A stretch of 63,246 nucleotides of DNA, the filler included, from a bacterium (GTDB lineage Bacteria > JAJRZV01): assembly GCA_024275095.1 (NCBI GenBank). It is 5 parts of 5 records of this genome, joined end to end, with 100 filler letters (N's around TTAATTAATTAA, not from the genome) between each part and the next. Parts side by side here need not be neighbours in the genome. Positions count along the whole stretch, not along the records: positions 1 to 21,251 come from JAJRZV010000118.1; 4 more parts are not named here. The stretch is one strand, 5' to 3'. Of the stretch, positions 17,242 through 59,068 are shown one piece after another. The notes below the pieces were generated by a model. It did not search any database and was not told the DNA's origin. It was given only the letters and a program-made list of their open reading frames with translations. The first letter of the stretch is position 1. The number at the start of each line of letters is the position of its first letter. The position numbers and the translations under genes were made by a program.

Positions 17242-18441
17242 ATGATTGGGTACATAGAGGCGATGGATCGGCTTATGCGATACGCCCCGCGCATTCGTGA
17301 GTCAGTTGAAGTGACTATTGAAGAGTGCCCGGGCAGGGTGCTGAGCGAGGACGTGTTTTCTCTTGCAGATGTTCCGGGTTTTGACAAGGCAGCCATGGAT
17401 GGATTTGCTGTGCGTTCAGTGGATACACAGAATCCACCCGTGGAGCTGAAGATAATAGAGGATATACCCGCTGGTGTTAAGCCTCGAAAATGCGTTGGTA
17501 AAGGCACTGCCTCTCGTATTATGACCGGTGCTATGCTCCCGGATGGCGCGGACAGTGTGGTCATGTGGGAGGATTGCGAAGAGAAAGATGGCGTTGTTAT
17601 TGTGAAAAAAGCTGTTAAAAAGGGCCAGAATGTTTCCAGGAAGGGGGAAGACTTCTCGAAGGATGCTTTGCTGGCTTCTAAGGGTACTATCCTCGATTTT
17701 CGTCACACTGCTTTGTTCGCCGCGTGTGGTATCTCTCGGGTTAGTGTAGTAAGGAAACCTCGAGTCTGTATATTTACTACCGGTGATGAAATTGTTGAGC
17801 CGGGGGAGGAGGCGATTCCACCTGCAACCTACAATGTGAACCGATCCACACTTTCCGTAATGGTGAAAACCGCTGGAGCTGAGATTTTTCTCTGTAAACA
17901 TCTTCCTGATAATCTTGATGAATTGAAAGAGCACTTCCGGGAATCTGCAGATTCAGGCGCTGACATTCTTCTGTTTAATGCAGGAATTTCCACCGGTCTT
18001 CACGACGTGGTAAGAGGACTCATGAGTGAGGAAGGTGTGAATGAGATTTATTACAAGGTTGCGATAAAGCCCGGGAAGCCCGTGTACTTCGGCATGTACC
18101 GAAACATTCCTGTTTTTGGACTGCCGGGTTATCCCGGTAGCACCATTGTGACATTTTTGAGATTTGTCAAGCCTTTCATCTACCGTATGATGGGGGCTAC
18201 CTGGAAACCCCGAGGAGTTTGGGCAAAAGCTGCCACGGATATTGCTGTGGGGGGCAAACGCCAGTCGCTTATTCGTGTTCAGCTTCGACAAGAAAACCGT
18301 GATTTTGTATTTTCTGAGGCAGGGCCTCATAAGTCCGGTGTGGTTTCAAGCATTGCTGCATCCGATGGTTTTATTCTTGTAGATAATCCTCAGGAAGGTG
18401 TGAAAGCCGGTGAGCGTTTTTTTGTGTATTTCTGGACGTAA
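17242..18441 (+). CDS. moeA: Molybdopterin molybdo/tungsto-transferase
   Basis: AMDGFAV, IMTGAMLPDGAD, TGDE, KPGKP, LPGYP. Confidence 0.95.
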   Translation: MIGYIEAMDRLMRYAPRIRESVEVTIEECPGRVLSEDVFSLADVPGFDKAAMDGFAVRSVDTQNPPVELKIIEDIPAGVKPRKCVGKGTASRIMTGAMLPDGADSVVMWEDCEEKDGVVIVKKAVKKGQNVSRKGEDFSKDALLASKGTILDFRHTALFAACGISRVSVVRKPRVCIFTTGDEIVEPGEEAIPPATYNVNRSTLSVMVKTAGAEIFLCKHLPDNLDELKEHFRESADSGADILLFNAGISTGLHDVVRGLMSEEGVNEIYYKVAIKPGKPVYFGMYRNIPVFGLPGYPGSTIVTFLRFVKPFIYRMMGATWKPRGVWAKAATDIAVGGKRQSLIRVQLRQENRDFVFSEAGPHKSGVVSSIAASDGFILVDNPQEGVKAGERFFVYFWT

Positions 18442-18526
18442 ACTCATAAAGCGAGAATGAGAAGACATTTTATCTTTTATAGTGTATAAGGATATATAAG
18501 TTAAATTTTTGAAAGGAGGATTTTCC

Positions 18527-20515
18527 ATGGCGGGAGGATATGTGGGACGTATTCTGTGGGTGGACCTTTCAAATGGCACCCATGAAATTGAAGAGTTACC
18601 GGAGGAAATATATCGCCATTATATAGGTGGTTATGGTCTGGGTGCCCGCATTATTTATGAACGCCAAAAACCGGGAGTGGATCCTCTGGGCGAGGAAGCA
18701 ATTTTCGGCATGGTACCTGGACTTCTTACCGGCACAGGTGCCCAGTTTGCCGGGCGTTATATGTGTGTGGGGAAGTCACCGCTTACAGGCGGCTGGGGTG
18801 ATTCGAATTCAGGCGGTTTTTTCGCTCCTGCTATAAAACAGTGTGGTTTTGATGGAATTTTCTTTAAAGGTAAGTCTGAAAGACCGGTATATCTTCTCGT
18901 CCAGGGCGATAAAATTGAAATTCGTGATGCGTCTCATCTCTGGGGTAAATCCACGATAGAGACTGAAAAGATGCTCAAAGAAGAGCTGGGTGATTCACGT
19001 GTTCAGGTGGCGTGTATTGGTCCTGCGGGAGAGAACCTCTCATTTATTTCGGGAGTTGTTACGGACAGGGGACGCATCGCTGCCCGTTCAGGGCTTGGAG
19101 CCGTGATGGGGTCCAAAAAGCTCAAGGCGGTGGTACTCAAAGGTAATGCGAAAATTCCCGTACACGACAGGGAACGTCTCATGAATGAGACGCGTCGTTT
19201 TCTGCGACGCATGGCAATTGCGGATAGAATTGTCAAATGGACAAATAAGGGTCTGCTTCACCGGGCAGGTAAACTCATGCGTTTTCTGCCCTTTCACATG
19301 CGCCAGGAAGCAATCCTCTGGAGAATTATTCTCAAAAAATTCGGTACATCTGGCATACTTGCTTTTTCGGTGGAAGGGGGAGATACCCCGGTGAAGAACT
19401 GGAAGGGCGTGGGATACATTGAATTTCCCCTTAAACGCTCTGCTCGTATCAGTGACGCGAATATTATTAAATACGAGGTGAAAAAGTATCACTGCTATTC
19501 GTGTCCCATCGGATGCGGTGGAATCATTAAAAAAACAGACGGTCGTTACCCCATTGAGGAAGGTCACAAACCCTAGTATGAAAACCTGGGCGCACTTGGA
19601 GCGATGAATCTGGTAGATGATCCGGACATTATTTTCATGATGAACGAAATGTGCAACGAAGCAGGGATTGATGCTATTTCTGCAGGAGCTGTGATTTCAT
19701 TTGCCATGGAATTGTACGAGCAGGGGATTCTCACACAAAACGATGTAGACGGATTGGACCTTTCCTGGGGCAATGGAGAAGCTGCAATGAAACTTCTTGA
19801 AAAGATTATCAAGCGTGAGGGAATTGGTGACGTGCTCGCTGATGGTGTGAGAAAAGCAGCCCAGAAAATCGGAAAAAATGCCGACCAATTTGCCATGCAC
19901 GCAGGTGGCCAGGAACTTCCCATGCATGACCCGAGGTATGACCCCGGATACGGTATTGGATACCATGGTGAACCCACACCGGGCCGTCACACCATCGCTT
20001 CATTTACATATCTGGAACTGACCCAGCTTGAGCGTAAATACAAACAGTTCAAAAAGATGAGTGCGCTTATGACCAAATCTTCCTGGTACAAACCCGAAGG
20101 TAAAGGAGAAGCCATAGCGTTTTTGAGCAAATTTTCCCAGACCGCATTTTCAGCAGGCCTTTGCCTGTTTGGTCTTCAAATGGGAGCCGATATTCCACTG
20201 GCGGAATGGATTGCTGCAGCTACTGGCTGGGATTTCACCAATGATGACCTTATTGAAACCGGTCAGCGTATAGGTACCCTCCGCCAGGCGTTCAACGCAC
20301 GCGAGGGGCTTGTTCCAAAACGTGATTTTGCCATCAATCCCCGTGCAATCGGCAAACCGCCGCTGCCCAAGGGACCCACCCAGGGGGTAACACTGGACAT
20401 GGATGCCTACCTGAAAGATTATTACCAGGCGTACGGATGGGACCCTGAAACAGGTATCCCTGTAAAGGAAACCATTGAAAAACTGGGCCTGAAAGATGTG
20501 GTGGAGGAGCTCTAA
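18527..20515 (+). CDS. aor: Tungsten-type aldehyde:ferredoxin oxidoreductase family protein with one in-frame TAG (19574-19576)
   Basis: KSPLTG, CIGPAGE, RSGLGAVMGSKKLK, CYSCPIGC, HKP*YEN, GIDAIS, ELPMHDPR; both ORF-track halves share one frame. Confidence 0.9.
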
Positions 20516-20810
20516 GAAACCCGCCGGGACAGTTAAGCTTACTGTTGTTGCATTTCTCGATGGTAAGGCCATTAATCGTCAGTTTACAGTTGATATTAAG
20601 GAGGGAGAAACACTCTGGAAGTTGTTCAAAAGACTGGATCGTGAGGGGCCGCTGGATCGAAACTATTTCAAGCGCATTTTCAGTCTTTCGCGGCCACCCA
20701 CGGTACTCCTTAATGGCGACCGTCTCACCGATATTCCCGGAGACCTCAAAAAGATTACTCTCAAGGATGCTGATGAAATTTCTGTTCTCATGCCGATTGC
20801 CGGCGGATAA
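20496..20810 (+). CDS. MoaD/ThiS family sulfur carrier
   Basis: VLLNG...LKDADEISVLMPIAGG, C-terminal GG, directly after aor. Confidence 0.85.
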   Translation: MWWRSSKKPAGTVKLTVVAFLDGKAINRQFTVDIKEGETLWKLFKRLDREGPLDRNYFKRIFSLSRPPTVLLNGDRLTDIPGDLKKITLKDADEISVLMPIAGG

Positions 20811-20847
20811 GTTGAATTTGATTCTTATTCGTGTTAAATAAACTTTC

Positions 20848-21251
20848 ATGAAGGAACTTTTGAAAAAAATCTCATTCTTGCGTGATTTGCCCGATCATTT
20901 ATTGGAAAGATTTCGCCCGTATATGGCACGTCGCAGTTATACTGCTGGAAGTGTCATCGTGGAGCAGGACGAAGCGGGAGACTCTCTTTATATCATTGCT
21001 CAGGGACGAGCCAAGGTATGTATCATGGGCGAAGATGGTAAAGAAGTGCTTCTTTCCATACTGAAAGAGGGTGACTTTTTTGGGGAGATGTCGGTTATAG
21101 ACCGTAAGCCCAGGTCTGCCTCGGTGGTTGCTCTTGACGATTGTGAACTTTTTACCATCACGCGCAATGCATTTCTTGAAATGATTAGAGAATGTCCTGA
21201 AATCTCCCTGAATATACTTTATGTAATGAGCGAACGACTCAGGAGGGCTGA
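20848..21251 (+). CDS. Crp/Fnr family cNMP-binding regulator (truncated by contig end)
   Basis: GDFFGEMS, PRSASV, C-helix ERLRRA. Confidence 0.88.
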
Positions 21252-21351
21252 NNNNNNNNNNNNNNNNNNNNNNNNNNNNNNNNNNNNNNNNNNNNTTAAT
21301 TAATTAANNNNNNNNNNNNNNNNNNNNNNNNNNNNNNNNNNNNNNNNNNNN
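21252..21351. other. Artificial contig linker
   Basis: N44-TTAATTAATTAA-N44, stops in all six frames. Confidence 0.97.
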
Positions 21352-28451: not shown

Positions 28452-28784
28452 CTACTTTTTATTTTTCTGCCTTTTTTGAAATTTTATGTTTATCGTCAGG
28501 TTGATCTGATATTCATCAAGCACCTTTCTCATCTCATCAGCAACCGAAAGGTTCTTCAAAAATTCCCCGAGCTCTGTGGCAAGACGGTCTCCAAAATCAC
28601 GAACAAGTTGATCAAAGCGCCCTGTAAGGTATTCCTCCACGCTTTTCCTGATAGCCCTTTCCGTCTCAAATACCATCCCCAATCCAACTGTACTGGCCAG
28701 GTCTCTCACCACATTCTTCAAGCCCTTGCTTCCATCACCTGAAGAATCCTTACTCCTGCTGGTGTTTTTCTTTCGTTCCGCCAT
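28452..28784 (-). CDS. Hypothetical helical protein coupled to the M16 peptidase
   Basis: 110-aa ORF overlapping the peptidase 3' end, plausible codon usage. Confidence 0.6.
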   Translation of the reverse strand: MAERKKNTSRSKDSSGDGSKGLKNVVRDLASTVGLGMVFETERAIRKSVEEYLTGRFDQLVRDFGDRLATELGEFLKNLSVADEMRKVLDEYQINLTINIKFQKRQKNKK

Positions 28785-31488
28785 TTTTCCCCCACCGAAC
28801 AAGGTCTTTGACGGCCTCCTTGGCGGACTCCGGGCCCACTATCACCACAGTGTATAGAGTCGGCTTCAGGTTGTCCAGAATCGCCCGTCGAATTTCGCGT
28901 GTGCTCACGTTCTGTATGCGTTTTGAAAATCGGAACACACGGGTGTAATCGCCTGTGAGGATCTGGGTGTACGCGAGGCGGGTACCCACAGCACTGTTCG
29001 TCTCAAACCCCATTTTATAATTCCCCACAACAAAGGTCTTGGCCCGCTGAATTTCATCGCCTGTAAGAGAATGTTCAAGTAAAAGGTCAACTTCCTGGCG
29101 AAAACCTTCAACCGCTTCCTTGACTTTCTCCGGAGCTGTCGCCATGTAAAAAATAAAGAGTCCGCTTTTTGCGCGTGGACGGTAAAAAGCCGTCACGGAA
29201 TATGCAAGAGCCCTTTTATCTCTCAGGTCCATAAACAAACGCCCGGACATCCCGGCGAGTGCATTTTCCACAACCTCCATGGGATATCGCGTTTCATCTT
29301 TCCCACCGGGTGCGTAAAAAGCCATTACAATATGTGCCTGCTCTGTATTCATCGGCACGAACTCGAAGGAGACGCGCTTGCGCTTTTCAACCACAGGTAC
29401 AACGACACTCTCCTCCTCTGCCGGCATGTTCGAGAGATACCCTTCGACAATGGGTAAAACATCCTCTGCGTGAAAATCGCCCACGAGAACCAGCAATCCA
29501 TTATTTGCCTGAACCACCCTGTGGTAATATTTCAAAACGTCCTCACGCGAAAGCTTCTCAACACTCTCTTTTGTCCCCAGAACATCTCTCCCGTATGGGT
29601 GGTCACCGTACATCACCCGTGCAAGTGCATTCATCAGAACACTGCGTGGATTCTCTTTCTCTTTACGAATAAGCGAAAGTTGATCTTTCTTAACCTTCTC
29701 CAGCTCCTCGACAGGAAAAGAGGGTTCCAACAGCACCTCTGAGAAAACCTGGAAGGCATCAAGAAAATCTTCTTTCAAGCACTCGGCTCGCAAACCAAAA
29801 GTCTCTGCGTCAGCATGGGCATAAAATAAAGTGAAATACCTATCCTCAAGTGCTGAAATCTCCTGGGCACTGCGAAACCGGGTTCCCCTGCGCATGGCAG
29901 CGGCTGTGAGCCATCCAAGTCCTTGCTTTTTGGGAGGTTCTGCTGCAACTCCTCCGTGAAAAACAGCTGTCATGTAAATGGTATTGGTTCCGGGACGTTC
30001 GAGCAAAAGCACGGGCAAACCATTTTTCAACGTGTAGAGTTTCACACCTTCCGACCCCTTTTTAATCTTCCTCTGCACCCCCCTCTTTTCCAAAAGTTCC
30101 TCGCGCAGCCATCTTTTTACGTCTCGTGCCGAAACAGATGAACCTTCAGGCAACATGAGTACCATGCCTGCACGTTCTCCTTTCAACCATTCGCCGGCCA
30201 GTTCCTGAAGCCGTTCACGTTTTGTGTGCACAAGAGCGTTCATGTACTTGAAAAAGAGCTCGGGATCCCTGCCTTCAGCAAAATACGAACCGAACGTCTC
30301 GGCAACACTCTCAGAATTCTCAAGGGAAGAAATGATGCCCTTTATCAAGCTCTCCTTTGCATTCTCAAACTCTTCTTCTGAGGGACCGGTCCTGCTGAAC
30401 ATCCTCAGTTCAGCAAACACTTCCCGCAACCCGATTTCTTCTTCTCCCTGCCTCAGCACCCCACTGACAAAGAAAGCACCTCGCTGCCGGGGTGACCACG
30501 CAGATGCACTGATGCGCGTCAACACATTCTTGCGCAAGCGTAAATTCTTCACCAGGCGTGACGACCCTGAACCTCCAAGAGCTGCAGCAAGCACATCTGC
30601 AGCTGCTGCCTGCTCCACATCTGTCAGACGTGTTCCAGGCCACACAAGAATAAAACGCGGTTCTCGAAGGTCCTTCTTGTAAAATACGTAAACCGGATCT
30701 TTCCACTTAAAAGAAGGTTCAAAAATTTCTCTTCGAGGACGCCTCTTTCCCGCCTTCCATGATCCAAAATACTTTTGTGCAACAGCAAAAACCTGTTCAA
30801 AAGTTGTCCCTCCTGCCACAACAAAGGCGGCGTTATCCGGTCTGTACCATTTTTTCATAAACCGGTAGAGGCTCTCCCGGGTCACCCTTCTCACTGTCTC
30901 GGGCCAACCGACAACAGGAACGCCATACGGATGGTCCTGAAAGGCGAAAGAGAGCGTTTCTTTCCATAACTTGCTTTCAGGCAGGTCTTCTCCTCTGCGG
31001 TACTCCTCCACAATCACCTCGATCTACTTTTTCAGCTCGTCCTCGGGAAAAGTAGGATTCTGACAAATATCAGCGAGTACATCGGCGGCTCTCGACAGGT
31101 GCTCCGCAGGTACGTTGACGACATAGGCCGTGTAATCATATGACGTGTAAGCATTCATATTACCACCCACACCCTCGATATCACGTGCAACATCCCCCAG
31201 GCCTCTGGTGCGTGTACCTTTGAACATCATGTGTTCAAATACGTGGGCAAGGCCGGCGAGATGCTTATCTTCATCCGTGGCACCGACACCGAACCAAATC
31301 TGAGCTGCTACTTTGGGAGAATCCATTTCATACGCACAAACAGTCAAACCGTTTGTCAATTTCCCACAACGAAACTGCTTTTTCATCTGCATAATCGTCT
31401 CCTCCCACAAGCTTGCCTGCGCAGCAAAAGCTGCAGTAACAGGTATTATTCCGTACAAAAAAACAAACATGTTTTTCGCTCTAAACAC
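28750..31488 (-). CDS. M16 (pitrilysin/insulinase) zinc peptidase, four-domain, with one in-frame TAG (31026-31024)
   Basis: HVFEHMMFKGT (HxxEH), NAYTS, ELKK*IEVIVEE, HPYG repeats; both ORF-track halves share one frame. Confidence 0.88.
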
Positions 31489-31661
31489 GTGAAGGAGTAT
31501 ACACTGTCCGAGTTTTCTTCAGCAATGCAATCAATGGCTCTATCCCGAAAAATCCGCATAACCTCCAGCGTCATCAGGATCAGACATCTCCTGTCGCTCT
31601 CTTCACAGGCAGTTTTTTTACTTCCTCTCCTTTACAGGCTCGTTTATCATCTTCTCCCGAG

Positions 31662-32994: not shown

Positions 32995-33094
32995 NNNNNN
33001 NNNNNNNNNNNNNNNNNNNNNNNNNNNNNNNNNNNNNNTTAATTAATTAANNNNNNNNNNNNNNNNNNNNNNNNNNNNNNNNNNNNNNNNNNNN
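32995..33094. other. Artificial contig linker
   Basis: N44-TTAATTAATTAA-N44. Confidence 0.97.
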
Positions 33095-51684: not shown

Positions 51685-51784
51685 NNNNNNNNNNNNNNNN
51701 NNNNNNNNNNNNNNNNNNNNNNNNNNNNTTAATTAATTAANNNNNNNNNNNNNNNNNNNNNNNNNNNNNNNNNNNNNNNNNNNN
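51685..51784. other. Artificial contig linker
   Basis: N44-TTAATTAATTAA-N44. Confidence 0.97.
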
Positions 51785-58968: not shown

Positions 58969-59068
58969 NNNNNNNNNNNNNNNNNNNNNNNNNNNNNNNN
59001 NNNNNNNNNNNNTTAATTAATTAANNNNNNNNNNNNNNNNNNNNNNNNNNNNNNNNNNNNNNNNNNNN
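58969..59068. other. Artificial contig linker
   Basis: N44-TTAATTAATTAA-N44. Confidence 0.97.

Follow-up and report, generated by a model that had tools for sequence, protein, structure and literature searches.

An in-frame TAG in an AOR gene is one of many scattered G:C>T:A-type stops in a draft bacterial genome

UAG is decoded as pyrrolysine where pylTSBCD is present, and a code in which UAR (UAA and UAG) stands for Glu is catalogued as NCBI table 30. Nuclear codes of the latter type occur in Blastocrithidia and peritrich ciliates (PMC12153298). In bacteria, all known stop reassignments concern UGA according to a screen of 250,000 genomes; where Pfam domains aligned to stops only sparsely and no suppressor tRNA was present, that screen ascribed the signal to pseudogenes (PMC8629427). 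In-frame stops in prokaryotic genes have otherwise been explained as artefacts or as transient polymorphisms (Belinky et al. 2021, PMC7918605), and oxidative library artefacts caused by 8-oxoguanine (8-oxoG) appear as G>T/C>A changes of low allele fraction (<20%) with a preference for CCG>CAG (Costello et al. 2013, PMC3616734). Here we compare with these systems an in-frame TAG in the gene of a tungsten aldehyde:ferredoxin oxidoreductase (AOR). The gene lies in a stretch of 63,246 nucleotides, called the window below, which consists of contigs C88, C89, C90, C92 and C94 of a draft bacterial genome (GCA_024275095.1, lineage JAJRZV01) joined by runs of N, positions 1-21251 being C88.

The locus resembles each of the described systems in part. 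Like pyrrolysine decoding, it involves a TAG in frame within an anaerobe's enzyme gene; however, no PylS above cut-off and no tRNA-Pyl were found in this genome, the site is an invariant Glu, and TAA and TGA interrupt genes as well. TAA and TAG at Glu positions are also what the UAR=Glu codes of Blastocrithidia and peritrich ciliates produce, but those eukaryotes have dedicated tRNAs and use such codons by the thousand, whereas here there are 24 TAA/TAG cases, some sites are Ser or Leu/Met, no matching tRNA was found, and TAA and TAG serve as normal terminators. Pfam domains aligned across in-frame stops are the signal used in screens for bacterial reassignment, and the pattern in this genome corresponds to what the cited screen describes as its pseudogene case rather than to UGA reassignment (PMC8629427). 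Ordinary nonsense alleles share with the present case single-base stops in otherwise intact conserved genes; unlike them, the stops here number at least 27 in 2.45 Mb, belong predominantly to one class of transversion and also hit essential genes present in single copy (PMC7918605). Finally, 8-oxoG artefacts show the same base-change class on both strands, scattered and blind to gene function, but the published ones have low allele fraction and favour CCG>CAG, whereas the bases here stand in the contig consensus (PMC3616734). Their sequence context is not comparable, as only stop-creating changes (G followed by A or G) are visible here. The stops are, in our judgement, probably damage-type or minor-variant bases that became fixed into a short-read assembly.

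The in-frame TAG of the AOR gene

The TAG lies on the plus strand within CAC AAA CCC TAG TAT GAA AAC CTG GGC GCA CTT GGA (19560-19606) and is codon 356 of a frame running from 18509 to 20515, the surrounding peptide being HKP-x-YENLGALGAMNLVDDPDIIFMMNEMCNEAGIDAISAGAVISFAMELYEQGILTQNDVDGLDLSWGNGEAAMK. With the TAG read as X, the frame gives 668 residues and has this TAG as its sole stop. The readthrough product belongs to the AOR family over its full length, with Pfam matches to AFOR_N at residues 13-212 (E 6.4e-78) and to AFOR_C at residues 271-661 (E 1.7e-106), the latter spanning profile positions 17-385. When the two halves were scanned apart, the upstream half matched positions 17-91 of the AFOR_C profile and the downstream half, of which 200 residues were scanned, matched positions 97-278. 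Since these coordinates are nearly continuous, the halves are a single domain of a single gene cut by the TAG. The closest homolog, which is 79% identical, is intact and has 664 aa.

Conservation at the site is complete among the best 120 database homologs (50-79% identity), in which the column of the TAG is Glu in 120/120 and the two columns after it are Tyr and then Glu, also in 120/120; both of these are present here. In tblastn rows of relatives, Glu stands at the site in six of seven, the seventh row being misaligned there. Tyr312 and Glu313 in the numbering of P. furiosus AOR are conserved second-shell active-site residues according to a tungsten-enzyme review (PMC12096430). Judged from the adjacent numbering, the Y-E after the TAG would be Tyr312/Glu313, and the TAG would replace the Glu immediately before them. 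We infer that it originated from GAG by one G>T change. A TAA seen in the best AOR relative was discarded as a parallel case, as it lies upstream of the start codon and not at the E-Y-E site.

The second in-frame TAG of the window cuts the gene of an M16 peptidase, within the Peptidase_M16 domain at profile position 107 of 149, after which Peptidase_M16_C follows. Its column is Glu in 4/4 solved M16 structures (PDB homologs). The initial annotation had placed the AOR TAG in an otherwise intact, in-frame gene at the conserved Glu of a P-E-Y-E motif and had pointed to the same Glu-to-TAG change in the M16 peptidase, and the domain matches and homologs agree with it on all of these counts. The two changes belong, however, to a G:C>T:A pattern that extends beyond amber codons and beyond Glu.

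Interrupting stops across the genome and the genetic code

The draft genome comprises 2.45 Mb in 136 contigs with 47.8% G+C and is estimated to be 97% complete with 0.94% contamination. A first scan collected pairs of open reading frames (ORFs) in the same frame that were separated by one stop, with at least 80 codons each and a coding score on both sides. All 165 pairs (81 TAA, 54 TGA, 30 TAG) were tested against Pfam, the halves being scanned apart over at most 200 residues from the stop. A gene was called interrupted when the same domain continued across the stop with contiguous profile coordinates, or when a cut domain was followed by a partner domain obligately on the same polypeptide. 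Single genes were interrupted in this sense by 13 of the 81 TAA, 7 of the 30 TAG and 1 of the 54 TGA. A second, looser scan, which admitted pieces of at least 25 codons, gave 149 further candidates; six of the ten tested as readthroughs with X were interrupted (3 TAA, 1 TAG, 2 TGA). The total is therefore at least 27 interrupted genes, with 16 TAA, 8 TAG and 3 TGA (Table 1), which is a lower bound.

Of the 175 pairs tested overall, 27 were counted as interrupted and 4 as doubtful, and 142 held no interrupted gene. Most of the 142 have different complete domains on either side of the stop. The doubtful pairs, which are outside the 27, are a TAG each in a GH15-like gene (C73) and a PHP-AAA gene (C117), a TAA in a TPR gene (C121, minus 36460) and a TAA in a PilZ-PilZ pair (C121, minus 54138). 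The interrupting stops sit in gene bodies and not near gene ends, the filter being blind to stops close to a gene end. No shared nucleotide motif of the methylation or systematic-error type was seen around 25 of the stops. An apparent deficit of TGA in the first scan (1 against about 6-7 expected) was considered as possible evidence for tolerance of UAA and UAG but not of UGA; the looser scan then added two, at Gly codons, the deficit is no longer significant, and the idea was dropped.

The residues replaced were read from homologs. The relatives compared were all of the 'same domain' and about 30-70% identical, too distant for variable sites to be settled. A search restricted to the phylum covered one genome, the draft itself; within the collection searched, no second species of this phylum seems to be represented. 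Glu is aligned with the TAG of ProB in 3/3 rows and with the TAA of the NiFe hydrogenase small subunit in 4/4. At the TAA of ValRS, 19 relatives have Asp (10), Glu (6), Thr (2) or Asn (1); the four rows with the same Thr-Pro before the site all have Glu, and of these residues only Glu has a single-step route to TAA. The TAG of the DAGK/YegS kinase is aligned with Ser in the three closest homologs (61-64% identity), within a column of 119 that holds Ser 46, Ala 27, Cys 21, Gly 18 and others 7, and with Asn in four solved structures. The TGA of the DUF362 protein falls on Gly in 42 of 43 homologs (Cys in the other), and that of the RhuM-family protein on Gly in 31/38.

Nine sites have a clear ancestor, and eight of them are reachable by one G>T or C>A change (Glu at five, Gly at two and Ser at one), Lon being the exception. 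The single-step source codons are GAA, GAG and GGA for G>T and TCG and TGC for C>A. When every single-step route to a stop is weighted by the codon usage of the genome, G:C>T:A accounts for 39.5%, and the probability that all eight of eight sites would take such a route is 6e-4, or 3e-3 for at least eight of nine with Lon included. The types of stop fit as well: G:C>T:A changes alone would be expected to give 54.6% TAA, 24.3% TAG and 21.2% TGA, that is 14.7, 6.6 and 5.7 of 27, and 16, 8 and 3 were observed (hand-computed chi-square about 1.7, 2 degrees of freedom). GAA and GAG are used in this genome at a ratio of 1.77:1.

We then consider whether any stop codon is decoded. The 1051 long ORFs of the genome end in TGA (565), TAA (389) or TAG (97). 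Among the 45 tRNAs found by aragorn there is none with a stop-reading anticodon (CUA, UUA or UCA), no tRNA-Pyl and no tRNA-Sec, and the 43 tRNAs found by Infernal all overlap this set. The draft lacks the Asn, Ile and Ala-UGC tRNAs, so that this set is not the full complement; with about 3% of the genome missing too, a stop-reading tRNA may therefore lie on an unbinned contig. Release factor 1 (RF1) is encoded by an intact ORF of 354 aa adjoining prmC, which we take to be RF1 from its PVT and GGQ motifs. The best match to PylS (TIGR02367) anywhere in the genome scores 26.8 bits against a cut-off of 178.15. Finally, the residue at in-frame TAGs is inconsistent, being Glu in AOR, M16 and ProB, Ser in DAGK and Leu or Met in Lon.

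The initial annotation had offered two explanations for the AOR codon: either GAG had become TAG by a nonsense change or an error, or TAG is decoded. If a reassigned or suppressor tRNA inserted Glu at TAG, or TAG encoded pyrrolysine, AOR and M16 would be intact genes. Two TAGs at invariant Glu positions within one window speak for this, unusual biology is conceivable a priori in the sole genome of a phylum in the collection searched, and with the missing sequence and tRNAs noted above a tRNA could have been overlooked. However, TAA breaks twice as many genes as TAG, and TGA breaks genes too; TAG sites do not align to one amino acid; and besides ending nearly a hundred long ORFs, TAG separates 21 of 30 pairs with no single gene across the stop, such as leuC|leuD, nuoA|nuoB|nuoC and rsfS|rlmH. 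RF1, against which the annotation had proposed to check the idea, is intact, and the CUA-anticodon tRNA it had suggested looking for was absent from the 45. The genome-wide tally of in-frame stops, set in advance as a test, gave a mix of TAA, TAG and TGA of the G>T type and not TAG alone; such a mix without a suppressor tRNA is what the annotation had named as the refutation of decoding. The precedent points the same way, known bacterial reassignments being all UGA in the screen cited above (PMC8629427). Amber decoding is thus extremely unlikely, and the alternative of a nonsense change or error is supported by the at least 27 scattered stops of G:C>T:A type. That the organism uses the standard bacterial code is the best explanation of these data.

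Origin of the stop bases

The interrupted genes show no shift towards dispensable functions. The genome has one match to dnaE, a frame of 1153 codons with a single TAA at codon 728, and the top-scoring match in each of 19 other matching genomes has no internal stop. There is likewise one match to valS, again with a single TAA. The only gene for release factor 2 (RF2), prfB (C21:8465-9529), has its in-frame TAA in the PCRF domain, which is matched at profile positions 1-70 before the stop and 76-194 after it. A ribosomal gene, rplC, is probably interrupted by TAA as well. With stops in single-copy dnaE, valS and prfB and probably in rplC, the lesions were not acted on by selection; and the absence of any sign of selection, with a ratio of the stops that tracks mutational target size, suggests that they never came under it. 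As a separate observation on prfB, the region upstream of 'GGIFDV' resembles the usual programmed frameshift region.

Broken essential genes in a genome that is 97% complete with 0.94% contamination, and an in-frame TAA in prfB itself, could also be accommodated by general, efficient readthrough of all three stops, through several suppressor tRNAs or through leaky termination tied to the interrupted RF2. However, the tRNAs found include none that reads a stop, all three stops serve as ordinary gene ends, and no gene is interrupted in 142 of the 175 tested pairs. Moreover, different residues (Glu, Ser and Gly) would be needed at different sites, and the stop-type ratio follows mutational target size, as is expected without selection. 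We regard general readthrough as very improbable, and decoding or readthrough in any form, taken jointly, as only marginally less so.

The explanation that we favour is that the stops arose in DNA preparation or assembly and not in cells. The AOR TAG would be a GAG (Glu) codon with T for G at its first base and would belong to a set of at least 27 single-base changes, spread over the draft, that create stops and are apparently nearly all of the G:C>T:A type (GAA>TAA, GAG>TAG, GGA>TGA and TCG>TAG). Such changes would strike genes irrespective of their essentiality, and the stop bases are most likely not the majority genotype of the living population. They may represent 8-oxoG-like damage, or minor-variant bases, carried by a de Bruijn assembler into unpolished contigs. 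The contigs themselves bear on the assembler: most contig ends share exactly 141 identical bp with another contig, the signature of a de Bruijn short-read assembly with k=141 and a pattern typical of MEGAHIT.

Two observations at contig ends indicate that alternative bases were present in the data. Eighteen longer end overlaps (261-401 bp, 5991 bp in total; for example C88:20921-21251 versus C81:1-331) contain 39 mismatches, 1-4 each, of which 13 are G:C<>T:A; such mismatched overlaps indicate either two haplotypes or recurrent read errors. In addition, exactly 141 nt separate the T of the DUF362 TGA from the end of contig C133. This makes the T the first base past a branch of the assembly graph, so another allele existed in the reads; and as none of the other binned contigs contains the terminal 141-mer of C133, the bin lacks the partner contig on which that allele would lie. 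The direction of change at contig-end tips (9 G:C>T:A versus 4 in reverse) involves too few cases to be used. A GGA/TGA difference between the contig ends of C26 and C93 was considered as a heterozygous nonsense site and left unused, because it falls in a low-scoring frame unlike a real protein.

The stops could instead be real alleles, in a lineage with weak 8-oxoG repair whose nonsense alleles segregate among strains or genome copies and were assembled as a mosaic. Fpg was not found, MutY is present only as a sub-cut-off ORF of 232 aa, the contig-end overlaps could reflect two haplotypes with a third of their 39 differences being G:C<>T:A, their transitions are mostly synonymous, and in-frame stops have been reported as short-lived polymorphisms in many bacteria (PMC7918605). 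Against this, single-copy dnaE, valS and prfB and probably rplC are broken mid-gene, and no viable cell can have these as its sole copy; an assembler that follows the majority path should not choose 27 rare deleterious alleles; and the interrupted genes are not skewed to dispensable functions. We consider this account unlikely, while giving it some weight. That the stops are real in living cells and are tolerated there, through readthrough at a useful rate or through many genome copies masking broken alleles, seems to us highly unlikely. If true, it would imply weak 8-oxoG repair as a steady source of changes and a bacterium that tolerates dozens of nonsense alleles in essential genes.

Returning to an origin in DNA preparation or assembly, several points weigh against it. 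Oxidative artefacts should rarely win the consensus unless the coverage by unique molecules is very low. The stop alleles are known here from contig consensus alone, no public run being listed for the window interval 18400-20600. Fpg was not found in this 97% complete genome, and the best match to MutY is an Nth-like ORF of 232 aa (C121:1802-2410) with 164.5 bits against a cut-off of 286.5; with neither Fpg nor a full-length MutY found, an in vivo G:C>T:A bias is plausible. A second in-frame stop suspected in this Nth-like gene in the course of the MutY search was rejected, the ORF being intact and the TAA its normal end. The end-overlap transitions, 10 synonymous against 5 non-synonymous, look like real polymorphism.

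The reading of ancestral residues is also less uniform than the clear sites imply. The TAG of Lon is aligned in 19 relatives with Leu (8), Met (6) and Gln, Ile, Val, Ala and Arg (1 each), with no Glu or Ser, which suggests TTG>TAG or another change. Seven further sites are uninformative because homologs vary or the alignment ends early: the aligned residues are D, Q and D at the TAG of biotin carboxylase, R (8), K (3), E (1) and Q (1) at the TAA of DnaE, R at the TAA of NadB, R, R and E at the TGA of SufB, L, L, L, R and R at the TAA of GspE, and N and G at the TAA of Mfd, and for the TAG of LeuA the alignment stops short of the site. The other eleven sites were compared with paralogs from the same genome only, with 0-3 rows each, and are mostly uninformative. 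Lastly, interrupted and merely adjacent genes were told apart by hand from Pfam coordinates, and the candidates of the looser scan that were tested (10 of 149) were picked by eye.

The biological weight of the two TAGs in the window is small: AOR and M16 are best taken as intact genes in which one base is miscalled or unfixed, and they are no evidence for amber decoding. The main value of the finding is a caution about data quality in the sole genome of its phylum in the collection searched. Annotation would turn at least 27 genes into split genes or pseudogenes, among them dnaE, valS, prfB, mfd, lon, leuA and proB, and by proportion several hundred more G:C>T:A substitutions are probably hidden as missense changes. 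Such assemblies would mislead screens for alternative genetic codes and for pseudogenes. A quick diagnostic is to compare the in-gene ratio of TAA, TAG and TGA with the usage of GAA, GAG and GGA codons.

Feature positions and neighbouring genes

The positions of the features are collected in Table 1. The M16 frame was converted to window coordinates by arithmetic from the contig offset. The N runs that join the contigs are at 21252-21351, 32995-33094, 51685-51784 and 58969-59068, and features are read within the contigs between them.

Table 1. Features of the window (window coordinates) and the 27 interrupting stops of the genome (contig, strand and first stop base, numbered along that strand)
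Feature	Position	Strand	Stop	Remarks
moeA (molybdopterin molybdenum/tungsten transferase)	17242..18441	+		MoeA_N, MoCF_biosynth, MoeA_C; upstream of AOR
AOR 5' part	18509..19573	+		TTG start 18509, ATG at 18527; AFOR_N, AFOR_C profile 17-91
AOR in-frame TAG	19574..19576	+	TAG	first Glu of invariant E-Y-E; Glu in 120/120 homologs
AOR 3' part	19577..20515	+	TAA	TAA end at 20513-20515; AFOR_C profile 97-278
cNMP-binding (Crp-like) gene	20848..21251	+		cNMP_binding E 1.9e-28; runs off end of contig C88
M16 peptidase open frame, TAG read through	28750..31518	-		stop to stop; C89 ORF pair, 164 + 757 codons
M16 peptidase in-frame TAG	31024..31026	-	TAG	conserved Glu; second in-frame TAG of window
DAGK/YegS kinase	C7+38473	+	TAG	
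LeuA	C43-13942	-	TAG	
Biotin carboxylase	C76-26691	-	TAG	
M50 protease	C79-10297	-	TAG	
AOR	C88+19574	+	TAG	
M16 peptidase	C89-1969	-	TAG	
ProB	C110+19155	+	TAG	
Lon	C13+35553	+	TAG	looser scan
SufB	C46+2205	+	TGA	
DUF362 protein	C133-142	-	TGA	looser scan
RhuM-family protein	C78-2728	-	TGA	looser scan
NiFe hydrogenase small subunit	C7+17629	+	TAA	
rplC (probable)	C11+754	+	TAA	
NadB	C16+30974	+	TAA	
Methyltransferase	C19-8040	-	TAA	
DnaE	C21-19168	-	TAA	
prfB (RF2)	C21+8711	+	TAA	
Mfd	C32+26048	+	TAA	
Malic enzyme	C59+5717	+	TAA	
GspE/PilB	C72-4264	-	TAA	
Radical-SAM protein	C96+3222	+	TAA	
GT4 glycosyltransferase	C102-581	-	TAA	
ABC permease	C128-12682	-	TAA	
Chemoreceptor	C129-7598	-	TAA	
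ValRS (valS)	C36+56604	+	TAA	looser scan
Second M50 protease	C16-44303	-	TAA	looser scan
TPR/cNMP protein	C11-51316	-	TAA	looser scan

The initial annotation had given the context of the AOR gene as moeA-aor-moaD-crp. Its moaD is unconfirmed: the small overlapping ORFs between AOR and the Crp-like gene, at 20496-20807 (104 aa) and 20545-20838 (98 aa), have no Pfam match at E <= 0.01. The rest of the arrangement stands, with moeA upstream of AOR and the Crp-like gene downstream.

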